This document shows, piece after piece, positions 3,656 to 59,545 of a stretch of DNA of 64,000 bases. The notes under the pieces were generated by a model that saw nothing but the letters and a program-made list of their open reading frames with translations, ran no database searches and had not been told where the DNA came from. Source of the stretch: Nitrospirota bacterium. Its GTDB lineage: Bacteria; Nitrospirota; UBA9217. The DNA lies in the NCBI GenBank assembly GCA_963840455.1, contig CAWIYV010000011.1, positions 768,001 to 832,000 of the forward strand, written 5' to 3'. Numbering within the stretch: the first letter of the stretch is position 1; the number at the start of each line of letters is the position of its first letter. A program made the position numbers and the translations under genes.

Positions 3656-5746
3656 ATGCTCTCGGCCTTGTTCAATCCGCAGTCCATCGCGGTTATCGGC
3701 GCTTCTGCGGACGCGAAAAAAGTTGGACATGCCGTCCTTCAGAACCTCATCCAGTACCGCTATAAGGGGCGGCTCATCCCGGTGAACCCCAGCTGCCCCG
3801 AGATCCTCGGCCTCAAAACCTACCCCAAGGTATCCACGGCAGAGGAAAGGACCGACCTGGCGATCATCGCCGTGCCGGCCAAGTTCGTTCCTGACACGCT
3901 CATCGACTGTTCCGTTGCCGGCGTCAAGGCCGCTGTCATCCTGAGTGCAGGATTCAAGGAGGCCGGCGCCGAAGGAACGCGCCTTGAGCAGACCGTCAAG
4001 GACATCGCGAAAAAGCGCGGCATCCGCGTCCTGGGCCCCAACTGCCTGGGCCTTATCAACACCGGGAACGACATGAACGCCACCTTTGCCGGCGGCATGC
4101 TGCCGAAAGGGCGGATCGCCTTCTTCTCGCAGTCCGGCGCGCTCGGCATCGCCATCCTGGACTGGGCCCTCGGGAACAGGATCGGCTTCTCCAAGTTCAT
4201 CAGCCTCGGGAACAAGGCGGACCTGAACGAGATCGACTTCATCGAATATTTCATGAACGATCCCGATACGGACATCATTCTGGGCTACATCGAGGACGTG
4301 GTGAGCGGCACACGGTTCCTCAAGGCCGCGTCACTGGCAACACGGGTCAAACCCATCGTTCTGCTCAAATCCGGCGGCACCGAGGCAGGCGCCCGGGCCG
4401 CGTCGTCCCACACCGGCGCGCTGGCCGGATCGGACGTGGCCTTCGACGCAGCTTTCCGCCAATCCGGAGTGATCCGCGCCTCGGGCGTCGAGGAGCTTTT
4501 TGACACGGCCATGACCTTCTCAGGCAGGAAGCTCCCTGCCGGGAACAGGCTGCTCATCGTCACGAACGCCGGCGGGCCCGGCATCCTCGCTGCGGACACG
4601 GCCGAGCGCATCGGCGTCAAGCTCCCGCAAATGACGAAGGATACGCTCGACGCGCTGATCAAGCAGCTGCCGCCCAGCGCTTCGGTCTACAATCCCGTGG
4701 ACCTGATCGGCGATGCCACGTCGGAGCGCTATGCCGTAGCAATGGAGAAGGCCGTGGCAGACCCCAATGTGGACGGCGTGCTCGTGATCCTGACGCCCCA
4801 GGCAATGACGGACGTGGATAACGTGGCAGATCTCACGATCCGGACGTCGAACACAACGGACAAGCCGATCCTCACGTCCTTTATGGGATCGCTTAGCGTA
4901 CAAGGTGCGGTGGAGAAGCTCAAGCAGGGATCCATACCGAACTTTTCCTATCCCGAGACCGCTGTCCGTGCGTTCAAGAAGCTCGCCGATTACCGGCAGT
5001 GGCAGACCGTGAAGGACGAGGAACTCCACGTGGGCTGGTTCAACGAGGACGCCGTGCAGGACCAGATAGACGCCCTCCTGAAGCGCGGTGTGTACCAGGC
5101 AGGAGAAGAGGAAGCCGTGGCCATGCTCGCTCTGTACGGCTTCAAGTTCCCCCAACGGCTCCTGGCGCGCACGGCAAAGGAAGCCGGAGCAGCAGGCGCG
5201 AAGATCGGCTTCCCGGTTGTAATGAAGATATCGTCCCCCGACATCCTGCACAAGACCGATGTGGGCGGCGTAAAGGTCGGTGTGCGGACCGCGAAGGAGG
5301 CCGAGGAGGCATTCCTGGCCATCACGGCGAACGCCCGCCGGTTCATGCCCGAGGCCTTCCTCAAGGGCGTCATGGTCTACGAGATGGTCAAGGGCGGCAA
5401 AGAGGTCATCCTGGGCGTCACCACCGATCGGACCTTCGGCCGCATGATCATGTTCGGGTTGGGCGGCATCTACGTCGAGGTCCTGAAGGACGTGTCCTTC
5501 CGCATCGTGCCGGTCACACGCCGGGACGCCCAGACCATGGTGGGCGAGATCAGGACCGTGGGGCTGCTCAAGGGTGCGCGGGGCGAGAAGTCCGTTGATC
5601 TTGCCGCCATCGCCGACAATATCGTCAGGCTCTCCGCCTTCGTGACGGCCTTCCCGGAGGTCCAGGAGCTGGACATCAATCCGCTGGTCGTGATGGAGCA
5701 GGGCGCCGTCGCGCTTGACGCGCGTATCATCTTTAAGCATATGTAA
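3656..5746 (+). CDS. acdAB: ADP-forming acetate/acyl-CoA ligase, fused alpha-beta
   Basis: CoA-binding N-terminus (IAVIGAS, GPNCLG), SQSGA, SHTGALAG phospho-His, ATP-grasp HKTDVGGV and ELDINP; no GNAT domain. Confidence 0.9.
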   Translation: MLSALFNPQSIAVIGASADAKKVGHAVLQNLIQYRYKGRLIPVNPSCPEILGLKTYPKVSTAEERTDLAIIAVPAKFVPDTLIDCSVAGVKAAVILSAGFKEAGAEGTRLEQTVKDIAKKRGIRVLGPNCLGLINTGNDMNATFAGGMLPKGRIAFFSQSGALGIAILDWALGNRIGFSKFISLGNKADLNEIDFIEYFMNDPDTDIILGYIEDVVSGTRFLKAASLATRVKPIVLLKSGGTEAGARAASSHTGALAGSDVAFDAAFRQSGVIRASGVEELFDTAMTFSGRKLPAGNRLLIVTNAGGPGILAADTAERIGVKLPQMTKDTLDALIKQLPPSASVYNPVDLIGDATSERYAVAMEKAVADPNVDGVLVILTPQAMTDVDNVADLTIRTSNTTDKPILTSFMGSLSVQGAVEKLKQGSIPNFSYPETAVRAFKKLADYRQWQTVKDEELHVGWFNEDAVQDQIDALLKRGVYQAGEEEAVAMLALYGFKFPQRLLARTAKEAGAAGAKIGFPVVMKISSPDILHKTDVGGVKVGVRTAKEAEEAFLAITANARRFMPEAFLKGVMVYEMVKGGKEVILGVTTDRTFGRMIMFGLGGIYVEVLKDVSFRIVPVTRRDAQTMVGEIRTVGLLKGARGEKSVDLAAIADNIVRLSAFVTAFPEVQELDINPLVVMEQGAVALDARIIFKHM

Positions 5747-55336: not shown

Positions 55337-56617
55337 TCAGATCCCCGTAGCGAGGGTCTTGAAATAGGTGACGACATCAATGGCAAACGGTTTGATGCAG
55401 TTGTCGTGCGTTGTTGTCAATGTTCCGGCATTGCAATTAACCACCGTCACCATGGTCGATCCGTTGCTGTCCATGGCGGCCTTGGCGGTCGTCGTGTTGG
55501 CATAGGGGACGACGTCGTCGTTTTGACCCTGGAACAGGCGCGTGGTGACGGCAGGCGCCCAGTTATAGATGTCGTTTTCGGCAATATGCGCCTTGAGCGC
55601 GGTCTCGCCCGTCCCCAGGTAGCTCGCAAGGAACACGGGGTTGAACAGTGCGCCCGTCATGACATTCGACCCCCCGAGATCAGCAGTGATCTGGCTTCTG
55701 CTGTAGTTCCCTCCGAAATGGGTAGCTACGACAGGCGCGTAAGTGAGGGAGAAGTAATACGCAAGCTGGCTCGACGGGTTGTAAAGGGAGTCGTAGGCTG
55801 CGAAAAAGAATCCGGCAAACGCGGGCTGCGGCTGCGACGCAAGCCCCAGGATGGTTTTGGTCGTGCTCGACAGGTCATAGGGGCCTGCGCCGGGCTCCGA
55901 AGCGGTGATGGGAAACTCGGCGCTCAGGCTTTGCTCCATCGATCGCTGCGTGGCAAGCGTTGCGTACCCTCCCTCGGAATAGCCCGCGAGAAACAGCTGG
56001 CCGTTCGTCACCGCGTTGATGCCCGGTTCCTTGAAAAATACGCGCGCGGCACGGTTCATGTCAATGCTTGCGGACGCGAGCATGGCGGCATGAACATAGG
56101 GGTGCAGCAGGGCTGACGAATCGCCGTAACCGATATAGTCGGGCATCACCGCGATGTATCCGATCGCCGCGAAGACCGCGCCCACCAGGCTCTCGGCGCT
56201 TGTGGGAAAACTGGAGGGCGCATCGGAATCCTGCAAAATCGTTCCGTGCTGGTAGCTCAACACCGGGCTACCTCCGCTCCGGGCGGCGGGCAGGCAGACG
56301 AGCCCTGAAGCATTGATGAGTGCGGCCGAGGCGTCCGGTGTTTTATAGGTAAGCTTGTAACAGGACACATCGGACAACGCGGTAAACCCGATCATCCCCG
56401 CGGACGCGATCAACGCATCCAGGGAAGCCGCATTGAGCGTTCCGGCCTTTGACCACGAAACGAGATCTCCCGCCGCAGCAGGCCCAGCAGGCGTCGAGCT
56501 GCCGGAGTTGCTGCCGCAGGAAAAAAATAGTCCAGTTGCAAGCAGGAGGGCAAGAAGTCGAAGGAACAGAGTGCGCATTGTCAGTTTATGTTCATGGTGT
56601 TGCATCAGGTCATTCAT
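55337..56617 (-). CDS. Lipoprotein alpha/beta hydrolase (secretory lipase-like)
   Basis: Lipobox FFSC; YQHGT, PDYIGYG, GYSEGG, GPYDL, DDVVP. Confidence 0.85.
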   Translation of the reverse strand: MNDLMQHHEHKLTMRTLFLRLLALLLATGLFFSCGSNSGSSTPAGPAAAGDLVSWSKAGTLNAASLDALIASAGMIGFTALSDVSCYKLTYKTPDASAALINASGLVCLPAARSGGSPVLSYQHGTILQDSDAPSSFPTSAESLVGAVFAAIGYIAVMPDYIGYGDSSALLHPYVHAAMLASASIDMNRAARVFFKEPGINAVTNGQLFLAGYSEGGYATLATQRSMEQSLSAEFPITASEPGAGPYDLSSTTKTILGLASQPQPAFAGFFFAAYDSLYNPSSQLAYYFSLTYAPVVATHFGGNYSRSQITADLGGSNVMTGALFNPVFLASYLGTGETALKAHIAENDIYNWAPAVTTRLFQGQNDDVVPYANTTTAKAAMDSNGSTMVTVVNCNAGTLTTTHDNCIKPFAIDVVTYFKTLATGI

Positions 56618-56841
56618 GGTTCCATCTCCCAGGATCATGATCATCAGGCAGCCGTTTTTTCCTCGTTTCGCCTCTCTATCAAAGGGTAGCCCTGTCGGAT
56701 GCAGGTGTCAACAGCTGCTCAGCTGTTCTTTTTCAGCCCTGTATCAAGTATAGCAGGGCCGGGAGCACAGAGGTTTGTGTGTTTGTTGTTCGTGCGCTGC
56801 GCCGAAGCATGGGTTTGTGTCATCCGTGCTGCAATACAAGC

Positions 56842-57266
56842 ATGAACAGACCGACCTTGGTAAGCCTCCTCATGATCGCCGGGCTCTCTGTTCTGGCGCA
56901 GGATGCCCATGCTCATCAACCAAGGATCGTGACCGGAGAACACGTCACGCTTGTCGAAGCGCCCGAGATCTCGAAAGCGTATTACGGCGAACTGACCGGC
57001 AAGCCGGACCTGTTCGTGGTGGAGCGTGACAAGCAATGGGACCTCTTTGTCGAGATCCTGGTCCCGGACCTGCCGGGAGTGCAGGAAGACAAGTCCTCTC
57101 CATAGAGCTTGAGGAACAGGTGAAGAAACGCGTCATCGCTCAAGGGCTAAGCAGGAACATGACAGGACTGTTCCTGCTCGGGCTGATGCTGGTAATTCTG
57201 GCGATGATACTTGGTATCGTGTATGGAGGGAGAAGCATTAAGCAGAGGTTCAGGAAAGCTCAATAG
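56842..57266 (+). pseudogene. Split exported/membrane hypothetical protein
   Basis: Signal peptide + AHQPR..PEISKAYYGEL stops at 57105; a TM-bearing C-terminus continues in another frame to 57266. Confidence 0.55.
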
Positions 57267-57423
57267 GTAGGTAATGCCAACCGAAAAGTCCTGATAATCA
57301 TATAAAGGGCACCTCCCTTGTTCTTCCTACGTTGAGCGAACCGGCCAAATGACACTAAAGTATTAACGCGTCTGTCGGTTCTCGTTTCCTTCCCTCGCTT
57401 CAAGATCATCGGTTGACAAAATG

Positions 57424-57432
57424 TGGTATACT
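57424..57432 (+). promoter_or_regulatory. Extended -10 promoter of the ncRNA
   Basis: TGgTATACT predicts +1 near 57439. An overlapping TATAAT and an upstream TTGACA occur at non-canonical spacing. Confidence 0.6.
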
Positions 57433-57438
57433 ATAATC

Positions 57439-57739
57439 AGGCGTTGCGGACTGGCACTGAGAAGTGTCAACCGTATCATCAACTGCCGTTGAGGGCACTA
57501 TAAGCGCCAACCGGGCGTGATTCGGGATCGGCATACAGCAGTCCGTGAGGGCTGTTAAACCGCCGGTTCGTAGATCACCAATGGCTGGAAAGCAGGTAGC
57601 CCCTGAGGTCAAAGGAGAATTCAGTAAAGGGAACGAACCGCTTCAGGATTTGCAGGAGCTAAGCACGGAAGTGATCGTTGATCTTACTGAATATCCCGAG
57701 GTTCAACGGAATGATCAGGATACGGTCAAAGCAACGCCT
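57439..57739 (+). ncRNA. Unassigned ~300-nt structured RNA
   Basis: Nested helices: AGGCGTTGC/GCAACGCCT, CCGTATC/GATACGG, CCGTTGA/TCAACGG, TCGGGAT/ATCCCGA and ATTCAGTAA/TTACTGAAT; GAGA and GTGA tetraloop hairpins. Confidence 0.72.
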
Positions 57740-57753
57740 TATTTGTCAAAAAC

Positions 57754-57790
57754 AAAAGCCGGCAGGGTTGATACCCCTGCCGGCTTTTTT
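57754..57790 (+). terminator. Strong intrinsic terminator
   Basis: AAAAGCCGGCAGGG/CCCTGCCGGCTTTTTT. Confidence 0.9.
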
Positions 57791-57931
57791 CGTTCCCTCA
57801 TCAGAGCACGCTTCTCGACCGCATGCAGGATCATGAACCTTTGGCGGGAGAAGTTCTGGAATAGGAATCGCAACTGCGCAACGGCTGCAGCCGCCTCCCC
57901 CTCACGTGCGTTTCAAGAATCGGCAAGGTGA

Positions 57932-57976
57932 TTGAAAACCCCTGCAGCAAGCTGCAGGGAATGCGCTCGCTCCTGG
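57932..57976 (-). mobile_element. Repeat family A, minimal 45-bp copy
   Basis: TTGAAAACCCCTGCAGCAAGCTGCAGGGAATGCGCTCGCTCCTGG|ATTCA. Confidence 0.75.
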
Positions 57977-58028
57977 ATTCAGGACACGAAGGGGAGGTGC
58001 AAAAAAGAGCTCTCGATACACGCTCTTT

Positions 58029-58197
58029 GTCACCTTTCTTGCATGCCCAAGAAAGTGACCCAAAGAAAGGCACCCGACGAAAATTCTTCACGGCATGTTC
58101 GGTCGTCCTCAGTACATTTCGGAAACTTGCCCTTCGGGCTTCGGACATCCGAAATGTTTAACCCTCGTCCTCTGTCGCCTGCCTAAATTTTCGTATG
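58029..58197 (-). repeat. Repeat family B, longer copy
   Basis: Core shared with 47983, plus a tail GGTGCCTTTCTTTGGGTCACTTTCTTGGGCATGCAAGAAAGGTGAC. Confidence 0.8.
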
Positions 58198-58369
58198 AGA
58201 CTGCTCTAGATCCTAGGTTTTCTCAAAGGTGAAGGGCTGATCGATCCCGGGGAAATGCTACAATATCAGAAAAGGCACCGTATCCTGGCAAAGGATATTG
58301 CAGACCAAAGCAAAGGAGACCCTGACCGACTCATCCCAGATGTTTCTCAGGAAGAACGTCAGGGGAACG

Positions 58370-59545
58370 ATGGAACAAAACGCCTCCGGGACCCTGGTCC
58401 GGAATGTCATGCTTGAATTTGCCGATCTCACCGGACTCGTATCTCCGCGGGAAGCGCCGCGGCGCTACTTATGGACGGACGCTTTTGCCGTCTGCAACTT
58501 CCTGGAACTCTATCGTCAAACGCATGATGAACACTTCAAGCAGCTCGCCCTGCACCTCGTCGATCAGGTCCATCACGTTCTCGGACGGCACCGTGACGAT
58601 GACCCGCGGACCGGCTGGCTCAGCGGTCTCGATGAACAGGGGGGCGCACTACACCCCACACGAGGCGGGCTACGGATCGGCAAGGAAATGAACGAACGCA
58701 GACCCGATGAATTTTATGACGAACAGGGGGAATGGGACCGGGACGGACAGTACTATCATTACCTCACGAAATGGATGCACGCGCTCGATCGGGCAAGCCG
58801 GGTCACCGGAGATCCGACGTACTGGAGATGGGCGATCGAGCTTGCGAAAACGGCTCATGCACGGTTTACCTACGCGACCTCACCAGGCCGCGCGAAACGC
58901 ATGTACTGGAAAATGAGCATCGACCTCTCCTATCCGCTCGTAGCATCGATGGGGCATCACGATCCTCTCGATGGATTCATCACCTATCTCCAGCTTCAGG
59001 CGACTGCGGCAAAAACTTCCGGGAACTCCGCAGGGCTCGACCTCAGCGCCGAGATTGCAGACATGGCTGTTCTGTGTGAAGGGAAAAGCTGGGAAACCGA
59101 TGACCCCCTTGGCGTCGGCGAGCTTCTGAGCAACGCATACAAACTGGCTCACTTGATCCTGATCGAAGGCCTTGAGCAGTCCGATCTTCTGGACGATCTC
59201 CTGGGTTCTTCCCTGGTCAGTCTGCAATCCGACGCGAGCAGGGACTTCCTGAAGTTTCCTGCTCAATACCGGCTTGCATTTCGGGAGCTGGGATTGTCCA
59301 TTGGATTACATGCACTGGAGAAGTTGGCGGGACTGATGCAACAAACTCCGCGCGATTTCAGTATGAAACGTCGTCTGCGTTCGCGAACCGAACGCCTGAT
59401 GCAGTATATACCTCTCCGGGAGAGCATCGAGACCTATTGGCTTGCCCCCGCAAACAGACAAGCGGACGAATGGATGGCGCATCGTGACATCAACATGGTC
59501 ATGCTGGCAACCAGCCTGGCCCCCGAGGGGTATCTCTCCCCGTGA
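58370..59545 (+). CDS. Conserved hypothetical protein, six-hairpin glycosidase-like
   Basis: RRYLWTDAFAV, DGQYYHYLTKW, WKMSIDL, HDPLDG, RLAFRELG, HRDIN.VM; the fold is inferred. Confidence 0.75.
   Translation: MEQNASGTLVRNVMLEFADLTGLVSPREAPRRYLWTDAFAVCNFLELYRQTHDEHFKQLALHLVDQVHHVLGRHRDDDPRTGWLSGLDEQGGALHPTRGGLRIGKEMNERRPDEFYDEQGEWDRDGQYYHYLTKWMHALDRASRVTGDPTYWRWAIELAKTAHARFTYATSPGRAKRMYWKMSIDLSYPLVASMGHHDPLDGFITYLQLQATAAKTSGNSAGLDLSAEIADMAVLCEGKSWETDDPLGVGELLSNAYKLAHLILIEGLEQSDLLDDLLGSSLVSLQSDASRDFLKFPAQYRLAFRELGLSIGLHALEKLAGLMQQTPRDFSMKRRLRSRTERLMQYIPLRESIETYWLAPANRQADEWMAHRDINMVMLATSLAPEGYLSP

Follow-up and report, generated by a model that had tools for sequence, protein, structure and literature searches.

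We analysed a 64,000-nucleotide (nt) stretch of a Nitrospirota bacterium (lineage UBA9217; contig CAWIYV010000011.1, positions 768,001–832,000 of the forward strand), hereafter the window, and show that positions 57439–57739 of its + strand are the gene for a discrete, highly structured non-coding RNA (ncRNA) of ∼300 nt. The RNA represents a new family, new insofar as it can be assigned to no known family or mechanism. Within one class-level Nitrospirota lineage this family is near-universal, and it is so far confined to that lineage. This reaches further than the original prediction, which was made from the letters of the window and saw a stand-alone RNA gene there: the window RNA is one paralogue of a class-wide family, a diverged copy of which sits beside trpE in essentially every genome of the class. 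We refer to the window-like form as type A and to the syntenic, trpE-adjacent form as type B. Taken as a whole, the best explanation appears to be a class-wide family of RNA genes acting in trans and bound by protein, for which we consider the likelihood slightly better than even.

Folding of positions 57436–57790 gave a minimum free energy of −144.5 kcal/mol, as compared with −108.0 ± 5.3 kcal/mol for 100 dinucleotide shuffles (z = −6.87), none of which was as good. A structure model of 99 pairs in 16 helices was obtained by running RNAalifold on 47 close sequences and refining the result by hand. RNAalifold was unstable on MAFFT alignments that included distant copies, so the hand-curated structure was used with realignment by covariance model (CM). 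Two such models, R1 and R2, are referred to below, R2 being built from both types (57 pairs). The architecture comprises two three-way junctions and two long irregular arms, with P1 leading to the junction of P1b, P2 and P3, then to P4, and then to both arms. Its elements are as follows.

57439–57739, + strand: structured RNA body, ∼300 nt, scoring 304.3 bits with R1 and 183.8 bits with R2 over 57437–57742.
57440–57447, + strand: 5′ strand of P1, GGCGUUGC, pairing with 57731–57738 (GCAACGCC); A57439–U57739 lengthens P1 in the window copy.
57449–57452, + strand: 5′ strand of P1b, pairing with 57724–57727.
57453–57468, + strand: P2 hairpin with a GAGA loop at 57459–57462; compensatory change in 6/6 pairs; shortened in some homologues.
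57472–57477, + strand: 5′ strand of P3, pairing with 57719–57723/24; compensatory change in 6/6 pairs; 93.5% paired.
57486–57492, + strand: 5′ strand of P4, CCGUUGA, pairing with UCAACGG at 57703–57709; 93.6% paired; in the most conserved core.
57493–57602, + strand: 5′ long arm, P5–P9, an irregular hairpin of ∼110 nt with a GUGA cap at 57545–57548 and a conserved GGAAAGC at 57587–57593.
57608–57702, + strand: 3′ long arm, P10–P16, an irregular hairpin of ∼95 nt with its tip loop at 57654–57657.
57703–57739, + strand: 3′ strands of P4, P3, P1b and P1, which close the molecule.

Comparison of homologues supported this model. In a MAFFT alignment of 18 sequences, 91.6% of cells were paired, as compared with 33–40% when the 3′ partners were slid by 1–3 columns, and both sides changed in 24 pairs, as compared with 10.5 ± 2.6 in shuffles and 8–15 in slid controls. 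When 78 distinct sequences were aligned with R1, 91.3% of cells were paired (33–42% in slid controls), and both bases changed with pairing kept in 88 of the 99 pairs, against 51.8 ± 3.6 in shuffles and 34–44 in slid controls; compensatory cells numbered 588, against 86–126 in slid controls. The slid controls rather than the shuffles are the fair yardstick, because they preserve relatedness and because the split between types A and B inflates naive covariation. The model beat them about twofold in pairs and about fivefold in cells. Covariation among homologues, which in excess of relatedness-preserving controls is the generic mark of a structured RNA, was thus found for the predicted element. 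Sense matches to the CM scored 292–352 bits and reverse-strand matches at most 22.7 bits; this gap, together with frequent G-U pairs, indicates that the RNA strand is the + strand.

P1 behaved differently from the other helices. The 9-bp closing helix proposed originally, AGGCGTTGC (57439–57447) with GCAACGCCT (57731–57739), is an exact complement in the window and has comparative support: among the 78 distinct sequences 99.5% of P1 cells were paired, with five of the eight pairs invariant, three varying on one side and none on both. All four pairs of P1b (helices 2 and 3), by comparison, changed on both sides, with 86% and 95.5% of cells paired. Compensatory change was found in 33 of 34 pairs in the 5′ arm (helices 7–14, 82–98% paired) and likewise in 33 of 34 in the 3′ arm (helices 15–24, 78–97% paired). 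P2 is truncated in genomes G031, G069 and G072, and the tip loop of the 3′ arm is AGGA in the window copy, GAGA in most type A copies. The most conserved blocks besides P1 are GUUGAGGG, UCAACGG, GCCCC and GGAAAGC (in the consensus, upper case marks conservation of at least 95% and lower case of at least 80%), with positions around the P4/P5 junction or within the 5′ arm.

The four inner helices originally proposed are all perfect complements in the window copy, and they fared differently on comparison. Both 57471–57477/57719–57725 and 57486–57492/57703–57709 were borne out by the comparative data, while for 57619–57627/57684–57692 the support covers 57619–57624/57687–57692. The fourth, 57522–57528/57693–57699, is not conserved and proved to be a chance complement: it was 63.5% paired among 18 homologues, 95 of 500 shuffles were as good, and a slid control reached 70.7%. 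The bases of its two strands pair locally instead, within the two separate long arms. GNRA-capped hairpins had also been proposed, and GAGA (57459–57462) and GUGA (57545–57548) do cap hairpins. Short natural variants of ∼240 nt that lack the distal 5′ arm occur at L039:1314–1549 (+ strand) and as matches of 236–256 nt in G003, G074, G026, G029 and G010, which suggests that the distal 5′ arm is dispensable for at least some function.

A fold of this kind might work without protein, as a ribozyme or as a self-assembling ‘ornate’ RNA-only particle like ROOL, GOLLD and OLE; we hold this to be unlikely. The RNA is long and highly structured with an invariant core, the type A arms have GNRA-type caps (GAGA, GUGA/GUAA) and many internal loops, and no partner protein gene was found. 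There is precedent in the homo-oligomeric RNA-only complexes reported for other orphan large RNAs (PMC12286853). The GNRA loops, however, are not kept in type B, and no reaction substrate is evident. Two crude column-pair scans for pseudoknot or tertiary covariation, dominated by the type A/type B split, brought out no conserved loop-loop or pseudoknot signal. At ∼300 nt, the RNA is also much smaller than ROOL, GOLLD and OLE.

The window copy lies in an interval of ∼1.65 kb without a credible gene, flanked by an S9-peptidase-like gene (55337–56644, − strand) and an orphan open reading frame (ORF; 58298–59545, + strand). The RNA body is accompanied by the following features.

57334–57412, + strand: upstream block, probable promoter or regulatory region, with conservation confined to close type A homologues.
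57413–57418, + strand: TTGACA motif, 8 nt 5′ of the −10 hexamer, a spacing unlike that of a canonical −35.
57422–57432, + strand: extended −10 promoter, TGTGGTATACT, with the hexamer TATACT at 57427–57432 and TG at 57424–57425, read directly.
57754–57790, + strand: intrinsic terminator, with stem 57758–57767 (GCCGGCAGGG) and 57775–57784 (CCCTGCCGGC), loop 57768–57774 and T6 at 57785–57790.
57791–57840, + strand: downstream block beginning CGTTCCCTCATC, conserved only among type A copies.

The extended −10 named in the original prediction (TGgTATACT) can be read in the window and is conserved, GTGGTATAnT being kept in six of the first nine homologues, including the distant G029 and G010. A scan for canonical sigma-70 −35/−10 pairs did not report this promoter; the call was made from the extended −10 and its conservation in homologues, because there is no canonical −35/−10 pair at the 8-nt spacing of TTGACA. 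The TTGACA motif is kept in most type A copies and has the same layout in some type B promoters (L175 ∼3929–3948). At this spacing it may be an operator or reflect an unusual promoter architecture. Transcription is predicted to start near 57438–57440, a range that includes the A57439 suggested originally. BLAST between oriented loci reached 44–169 nt 5′ of the start of the block in many inter-genus pairs, and did not do so in more distant homologues.

The terminator starts 14–18 nt 3′ of the closing helix, in line with the ∼15 nt given originally; its stem and T6 can be read directly, and its pairing is maintained in homologues through changes on both sides (alignment columns 450–483). A terminator scan found the same hairpin of 14 pairs at 57754–57788, listed on the − strand only. 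At another locus (L036:1499–2660, in G006), an insert of ∼790 nt separates the end of the RNA from the sequence that matches the terminator. Directly 3′ of the terminator of the window copy lie two dispersed repeat units, at 57937–57981 (∼45 nt, with a palindrome) and 58024–58204 (∼180 nt). A search of sister genomes for empty sites met these repeats, the flanks not being conserved within the genus. A 301-nt query gave 55 matches across the contigs of the genome carrying the window (G000, 100% complete) and dozens in each of five congeners.

Six of the 20 runs listed as containing part of the window are RNA libraries. In four RNA runs from four studies, contig cover over 57200–58000, which is supportive but not decisive, consisted of 12 contigs (61–259 nt), all of them within 57451–57734, and depth was zero at 57200–57442 and 57740–58000 in all four runs; uncovered parts of the region are by themselves no evidence of absence. 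Several RNA-library contigs had 0–1 mismatches over 139–218 nt. One contig runs at 57734 straight into sequencing-adapter sequence, a weak hint that the molecules end near the 3′ end of P1. A conserved extended −10 and terminator, with RNA contigs confined to the RNA body, are the generic attributes of an independent ncRNA gene.

A small protein-coding gene, in the ORF starting at 57581 or in another short ORF, retains scarcely any probability. An ORF does run from 57545/57581 to 57931 in the window copy, but it passes through the terminator; of 47 close homologues, 6 have its ATG and 13 keep the frame open as far as the RNA end. The ORF at 57581 showed no 3-base periodicity, diversity by codon position being flat (0.187–0.204) in all three frames, and frames of at least 80 amino acids over the RNA were open on either strand in 12 of 53 loci. 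Codon-level conservation of the overlapping ORF, which had been raised as a challenge to the ncRNA, was thus not seen.

The distribution of the family was examined with sequence patterns and with the CMs. BLAST detected copies in 10 of 61 relatives, all within the window's family, and in 17 of the 64 genomes of that family. A three-block pattern (GGCGYTGC...GTTGAGGG...GCAACGCC) matched 38 stretches of genome contigs, 16 of which were confirmed by nhmmer (titled Nitrospirota/Nitrospirae bacterium in 15 cases and Betaproteobacteria bacterium in one); the 22 others, from other phyla, were chance matches. A similar pattern matched 94 stretches of metagenomes, of which 33 of the first 80 and four of the remaining 14 were confirmed. 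The pooled homologue set held 55 unique sequences. With R1 the family was found in 55 of the 64 family genomes and in all 19 genera, including a second, diverged copy in the genome carrying the window. With R2 the RNA was found in 62 of the 64 genomes of the window's class, which in this collection are the same 64 genomes as the family, and in all 32 of the high-quality ones (at least 90% complete, at most 5% contaminated). The two genomes missed are 71% complete, with a 5′-truncated copy, and 68% complete. In a sample of the phylum, R2 detected the RNA in 27/27 genomes of the window's family and in none of 123 genomes from 21 other Nitrospirota families; R1 also gave 0/123, both searches having been run with the stricter filters of Infernal. 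A pattern scan of viral contigs gave one match, due to chance and not confirmed by R2, and a phage association was rejected on this ground. A 5′-truncated copy at L037:1251–1663 (in G034), where the 3′ half of the RNA directly abuts sequence that in a related genome is found ∼120 nt 5′ of the RNA, is probably dead.

The two types of copy differed in context and divergence. Type A, defined by an R1 score above 180 bits, comprised 19 copies in 14 of the 64 genomes, from eight genera. Some genomes have two copies, the pairs lying 1–3 kb apart in three of them, and type A contexts are unrelated between loci. The type B copy of the genome carrying the window (C11:290824–291129, + strand; L175:4001–4306) is 58% identical to the window copy and sits between a divergent trpE and a glgC-like gene. 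Of 21 diverged copies that were fetched, 18 had a divergent trpE (anthranilate synthase component I) starting ∼110 nt upstream, and trpE is preceded at type B loci by an SMC/AAA-like gene. Each paralogue has its own promoter. That of type B has its extended −10 ∼55–65 nt upstream of P1, with the motif TGNTANANT in 26 of 32 listed copies, and the leader contains a conserved TCTTTGAAA motif. Identity within genera was 87–88% for both types, while between genera it was 82–84% for type A, as compared with 55–69% for type B in the same pairs of genomes. The sequence shared by close type A copies extends beyond the RNA, by ∼45–170 nt upstream and ∼45 nt downstream, and has no sharp borders in common. 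We read type A as a probable accessory cassette of promoter, RNA and terminator that arose from the core gene and has probably been exchanged horizontally; alternatively, its similarity between genera may reflect stronger constraint. Diverged copies also occur in tandem arrays, head to tail and 75–170 nt apart, with three copies at L011:1499–2694 (− strand) and pairs at L098:1588–2318 (− strand) and L100:4350–5032 (+ strand).

The behaviour of type A bears on whether the element is a cellular RNA gene at all, or a mobile or selfish element in which the invariant GGCGTTGC...GCAACGCC would be terminal inverted repeats, or else a retron-like msr/msd RNA. Type A is patchy, is found in unrelated contexts, sometimes in tandem or multiple copies, and is more alike between genera than type B; one of ten ORFs examined next to other type A copies encodes an IS110-family transposase, the window copy is closely followed by dispersed repeats, and the putative terminal inverted repeat never covaries. 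Such an origin is nevertheless very unlikely for the family, since type B is syntenic beside trpE in 18/21 loci across genera and present in essentially every genome. There were neither sharp shared borders to the conservation nor any visible target-site duplications; the genes flanking the window copy, like nine of the ten flanking ORFs at other type A loci, showed no domain of a reverse transcriptase or transposase; and the sole viral-contig match was a chance one. Covariation in the internal helices, moreover, involves many G-U pairs, which is what an RNA made from the + strand should show. A retron msr-msd resembles the window RNA in that its ends pair through inverted repeats enclosing hairpins, but Pfam searches found no reverse-transcriptase domain in the ORFs flanking the window copy or in ten ORFs flanking other copies. 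The window RNA family is also universal and syntenic in a whole class, which to our knowledge retrons are not. Selfish mobility remains a rival for type A only.

Type B, in turn, has features that could suit a cis-regulatory element, a giant riboswitch or leader whose closing stem and U-tract would control read-through into downstream genes. Of 32 listed copies, 24 have a run of at least four T directly after the 3′ strand of P1, resembling a terminator closed by a long-range stem, and in genus g1 and a second genus a glgC-like gene follows (7 of 21 loci). At the other 14 type B loci and at type A loci, however, there is no conserved downstream gene; in the window copy, a strong terminator separate from P1 and ∼500 nt of repeats precede the next ORF, and the RNA contigs stop within the RNA. 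This leaves the leader a very slight probability. With a terminator after the RNA and flanks that differ between loci, we agree with the original prediction that the window RNA is not a cis-leader.

No known RNA family accounts for the element. Rfam 15 gave no match over the whole window at gathering thresholds, and at E ≤ 10 gave sub-threshold matches only, driven by the terminator hairpin; the CsrC matches at this level span the terminator only. There was no Rfam match over the RNA in 11 other homologue loci (the type B copy of the genome carrying the window and ten others). The partly accessible literature on structured ncRNAs of Nitrospirota and on classes of the ROOL/GOLLD/OLE type yielded no such RNA, and supplementary motif lists could contain it. 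None of the refuting conditions named originally was borne out, and the novelty proposed then stands in the face of these searches, which together with the covariation, the RNA contigs and the non-coding ORF support an independently transcribed, undescribed large ncRNA. A divergent housekeeping RNA was rejected because the corresponding genes all lie elsewhere in the same genome: RNase P RNA (C11:742801–743169, 279.9 bits, RF00010), small signal recognition particle (SRP) RNA (C10:448447–448545, 74.3 bits), 6S RNA (C7:28855–29031, 86.5 bits) and transfer-messenger RNA (tmRNA; C11:703275–703624, 200 bits). The element matches neither RF00010, RF00013 and RF00023 nor the SRP models RF00169 and RF01854, in keeping with the absence of RNase P, tmRNA and SRP features noted originally; a weak echo of SRP helix 8, also noted then, found no support in a genome that has a normal small SRP RNA. 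RNase P RNA, SRP RNA and tmRNA are similar to the window RNA in size range, paired ends and lineage universality, but have separate, normal genes here.

Other systems resemble the window RNA in part. Like OLE, ROOL, GOLLD and the raiA motif, it is long, intricate, independently transcribed and supported by covariation, with no obvious partner gene nearby; unlike them, it is limited to one Nitrospirota class, near-universal there, and present as a syntenic core copy with accessory paralogues, and it does not match their Rfam models. It shares with the bacterial Y RNAs bound by Rsr/Ro60 a closing stem that is formed by the ends and conserved in sequence while the rest varies, as well as tandem paralogues. 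Y RNAs are much smaller, however, no Rfam Y RNA model matches the window RNA, and no TROVE/Ro60 gene (PF05731) was found in the genome carrying the window by a search that was positive for both controls, Deinococcus radiodurans and Bacteroides thetaiotaomicron; a Y RNA identity was rejected for lack of the TROVE gene. CsrB/C and RsmX/Y/Z likewise have multiple, sometimes tandem paralogues, each with a promoter and a terminator, but consist of many short GGA-loop hairpins, whereas the window RNA has long continuous helices. By a count made by eye, GGA occurs ∼10 times in its 300 nt.

The likeness to 6S RNA and actinobacterial Ms1 raises a further candidate, a global regulator that binds RNA polymerase, with types A and B as differently expressed paralogues. 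The window RNA is lineage-wide, appears abundant in RNA libraries, has 5′ and 3′ ends that pair, and occurs as paralogues with strong promoters of their own; Bacillus, too, has 6S-1 and 6S-2 paralogues. It is nevertheless a branched Y with two arms rather than a single rod with a central bubble, and canonical 6S RNA is present separately in the same genome, which makes such a regulator distinctly unlikely.

The function that we favour is that of a stable, protein-bound RNA, which may act in trans as a scaffold or as a regulator that sequesters protein; its likelihood is at best about even. The sequence-invariant P1 and the P4/P5/P10 junction would form the recognition platform and the co-varying arms would supply the architecture, while type A would spread horizontally, be regulated differently and engage the partner that type B engages. 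A sequence-specific partner is favoured because P1 is conserved on both strands beside helices that tolerate any compensatory change. Nearly all helices except P1 show such change, and P1 and the P4/P5 junction are where the conserved blocks concentrate. Binding by protein in trans is favoured because paralogues with separate promoters are typical of RNAs of that kind.

Several points weigh against this interpretation and the evidence beneath it. No protein gene is consistently adjacent to the RNA except trpE, which encodes a metabolic enzyme, and no protein partner was identified. The 415-amino-acid protein encoded by the orphan ORF next to the window copy occurs in 8 of 27 family genomes, in most cases a long way from the RNA, and in 0/123 genomes of other families; it was rejected as an obligate partner on these grounds of occurrence and distance. 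RNA-RNA or catalytic roles would account for the invariance of P1 equally well. The large alignments had been fitted to the structure model, and of the 92 ‘compensatory’ column pairs returned by a crude column scan only 14 belong to that model, the deep split between types A and B inflating naive covariation. The RNA contigs show neither the ends, the strand nor the level of the transcript, and the empty flank cover could partly reflect relatives with different flanks, since flanks diverge faster than the RNA.

Presence in nearly every genome of a lineage suggests that the RNA probably does something basic. We tentatively consider, as possible rather than probable, a lineage-defining housekeeping RNA, the subunit of an undescribed ribonucleoprotein or a new ribozyme, which would be a fifth ‘universal’ stable RNA with type A as a horizontally spreading variant. 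In that event the RNA would stand beside RNase P, SRP, tmRNA and 6S in these cells, and the type A cassette would move between genera, competing with, supplementing or reprogramming the resident machinery.

Large, well-structured bacterial RNAs of undescribed role are rare, and RNase P, 6S, OLE and ROOL/GOLLD repeatedly led to new biochemistry. The present family has a clean signature (62/64 class genomes against 0/123 genomes of neighbouring families, an invariant core, covarying arms and expression from four metatranscriptome studies) and its copies are of two sorts, one syntenic and part of the core, the other accessory and more mobile. Direct tests can now draw on a covariance model, a structure and defined boundaries. 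The RNA is also a marker for an uncultivated, environmentally widespread group, which run labels place in wetlands, sediments, soil and groundwater.

The genes that flank the RNA vary by locus and include those for prismane, NmrA-like, PD-(D/E)XK nuclease, PAS kinase, OmpA, DUF72 and PAS-GGDEF-EAL proteins; the last, a neighbour in three genomes, was judged incidental. A conserved partner gene near type A was rejected after neighbour clustering of 53 type A-like loci, which returned just ORFs overlapping the RNA, synteny among close relatives and the 415-amino-acid ORF in 7 of the 53. This orphan ORF (58298–59545, + strand) had no Pfam, NCBIfam or PDB-sequence match, and its product is a lineage-restricted orphan.

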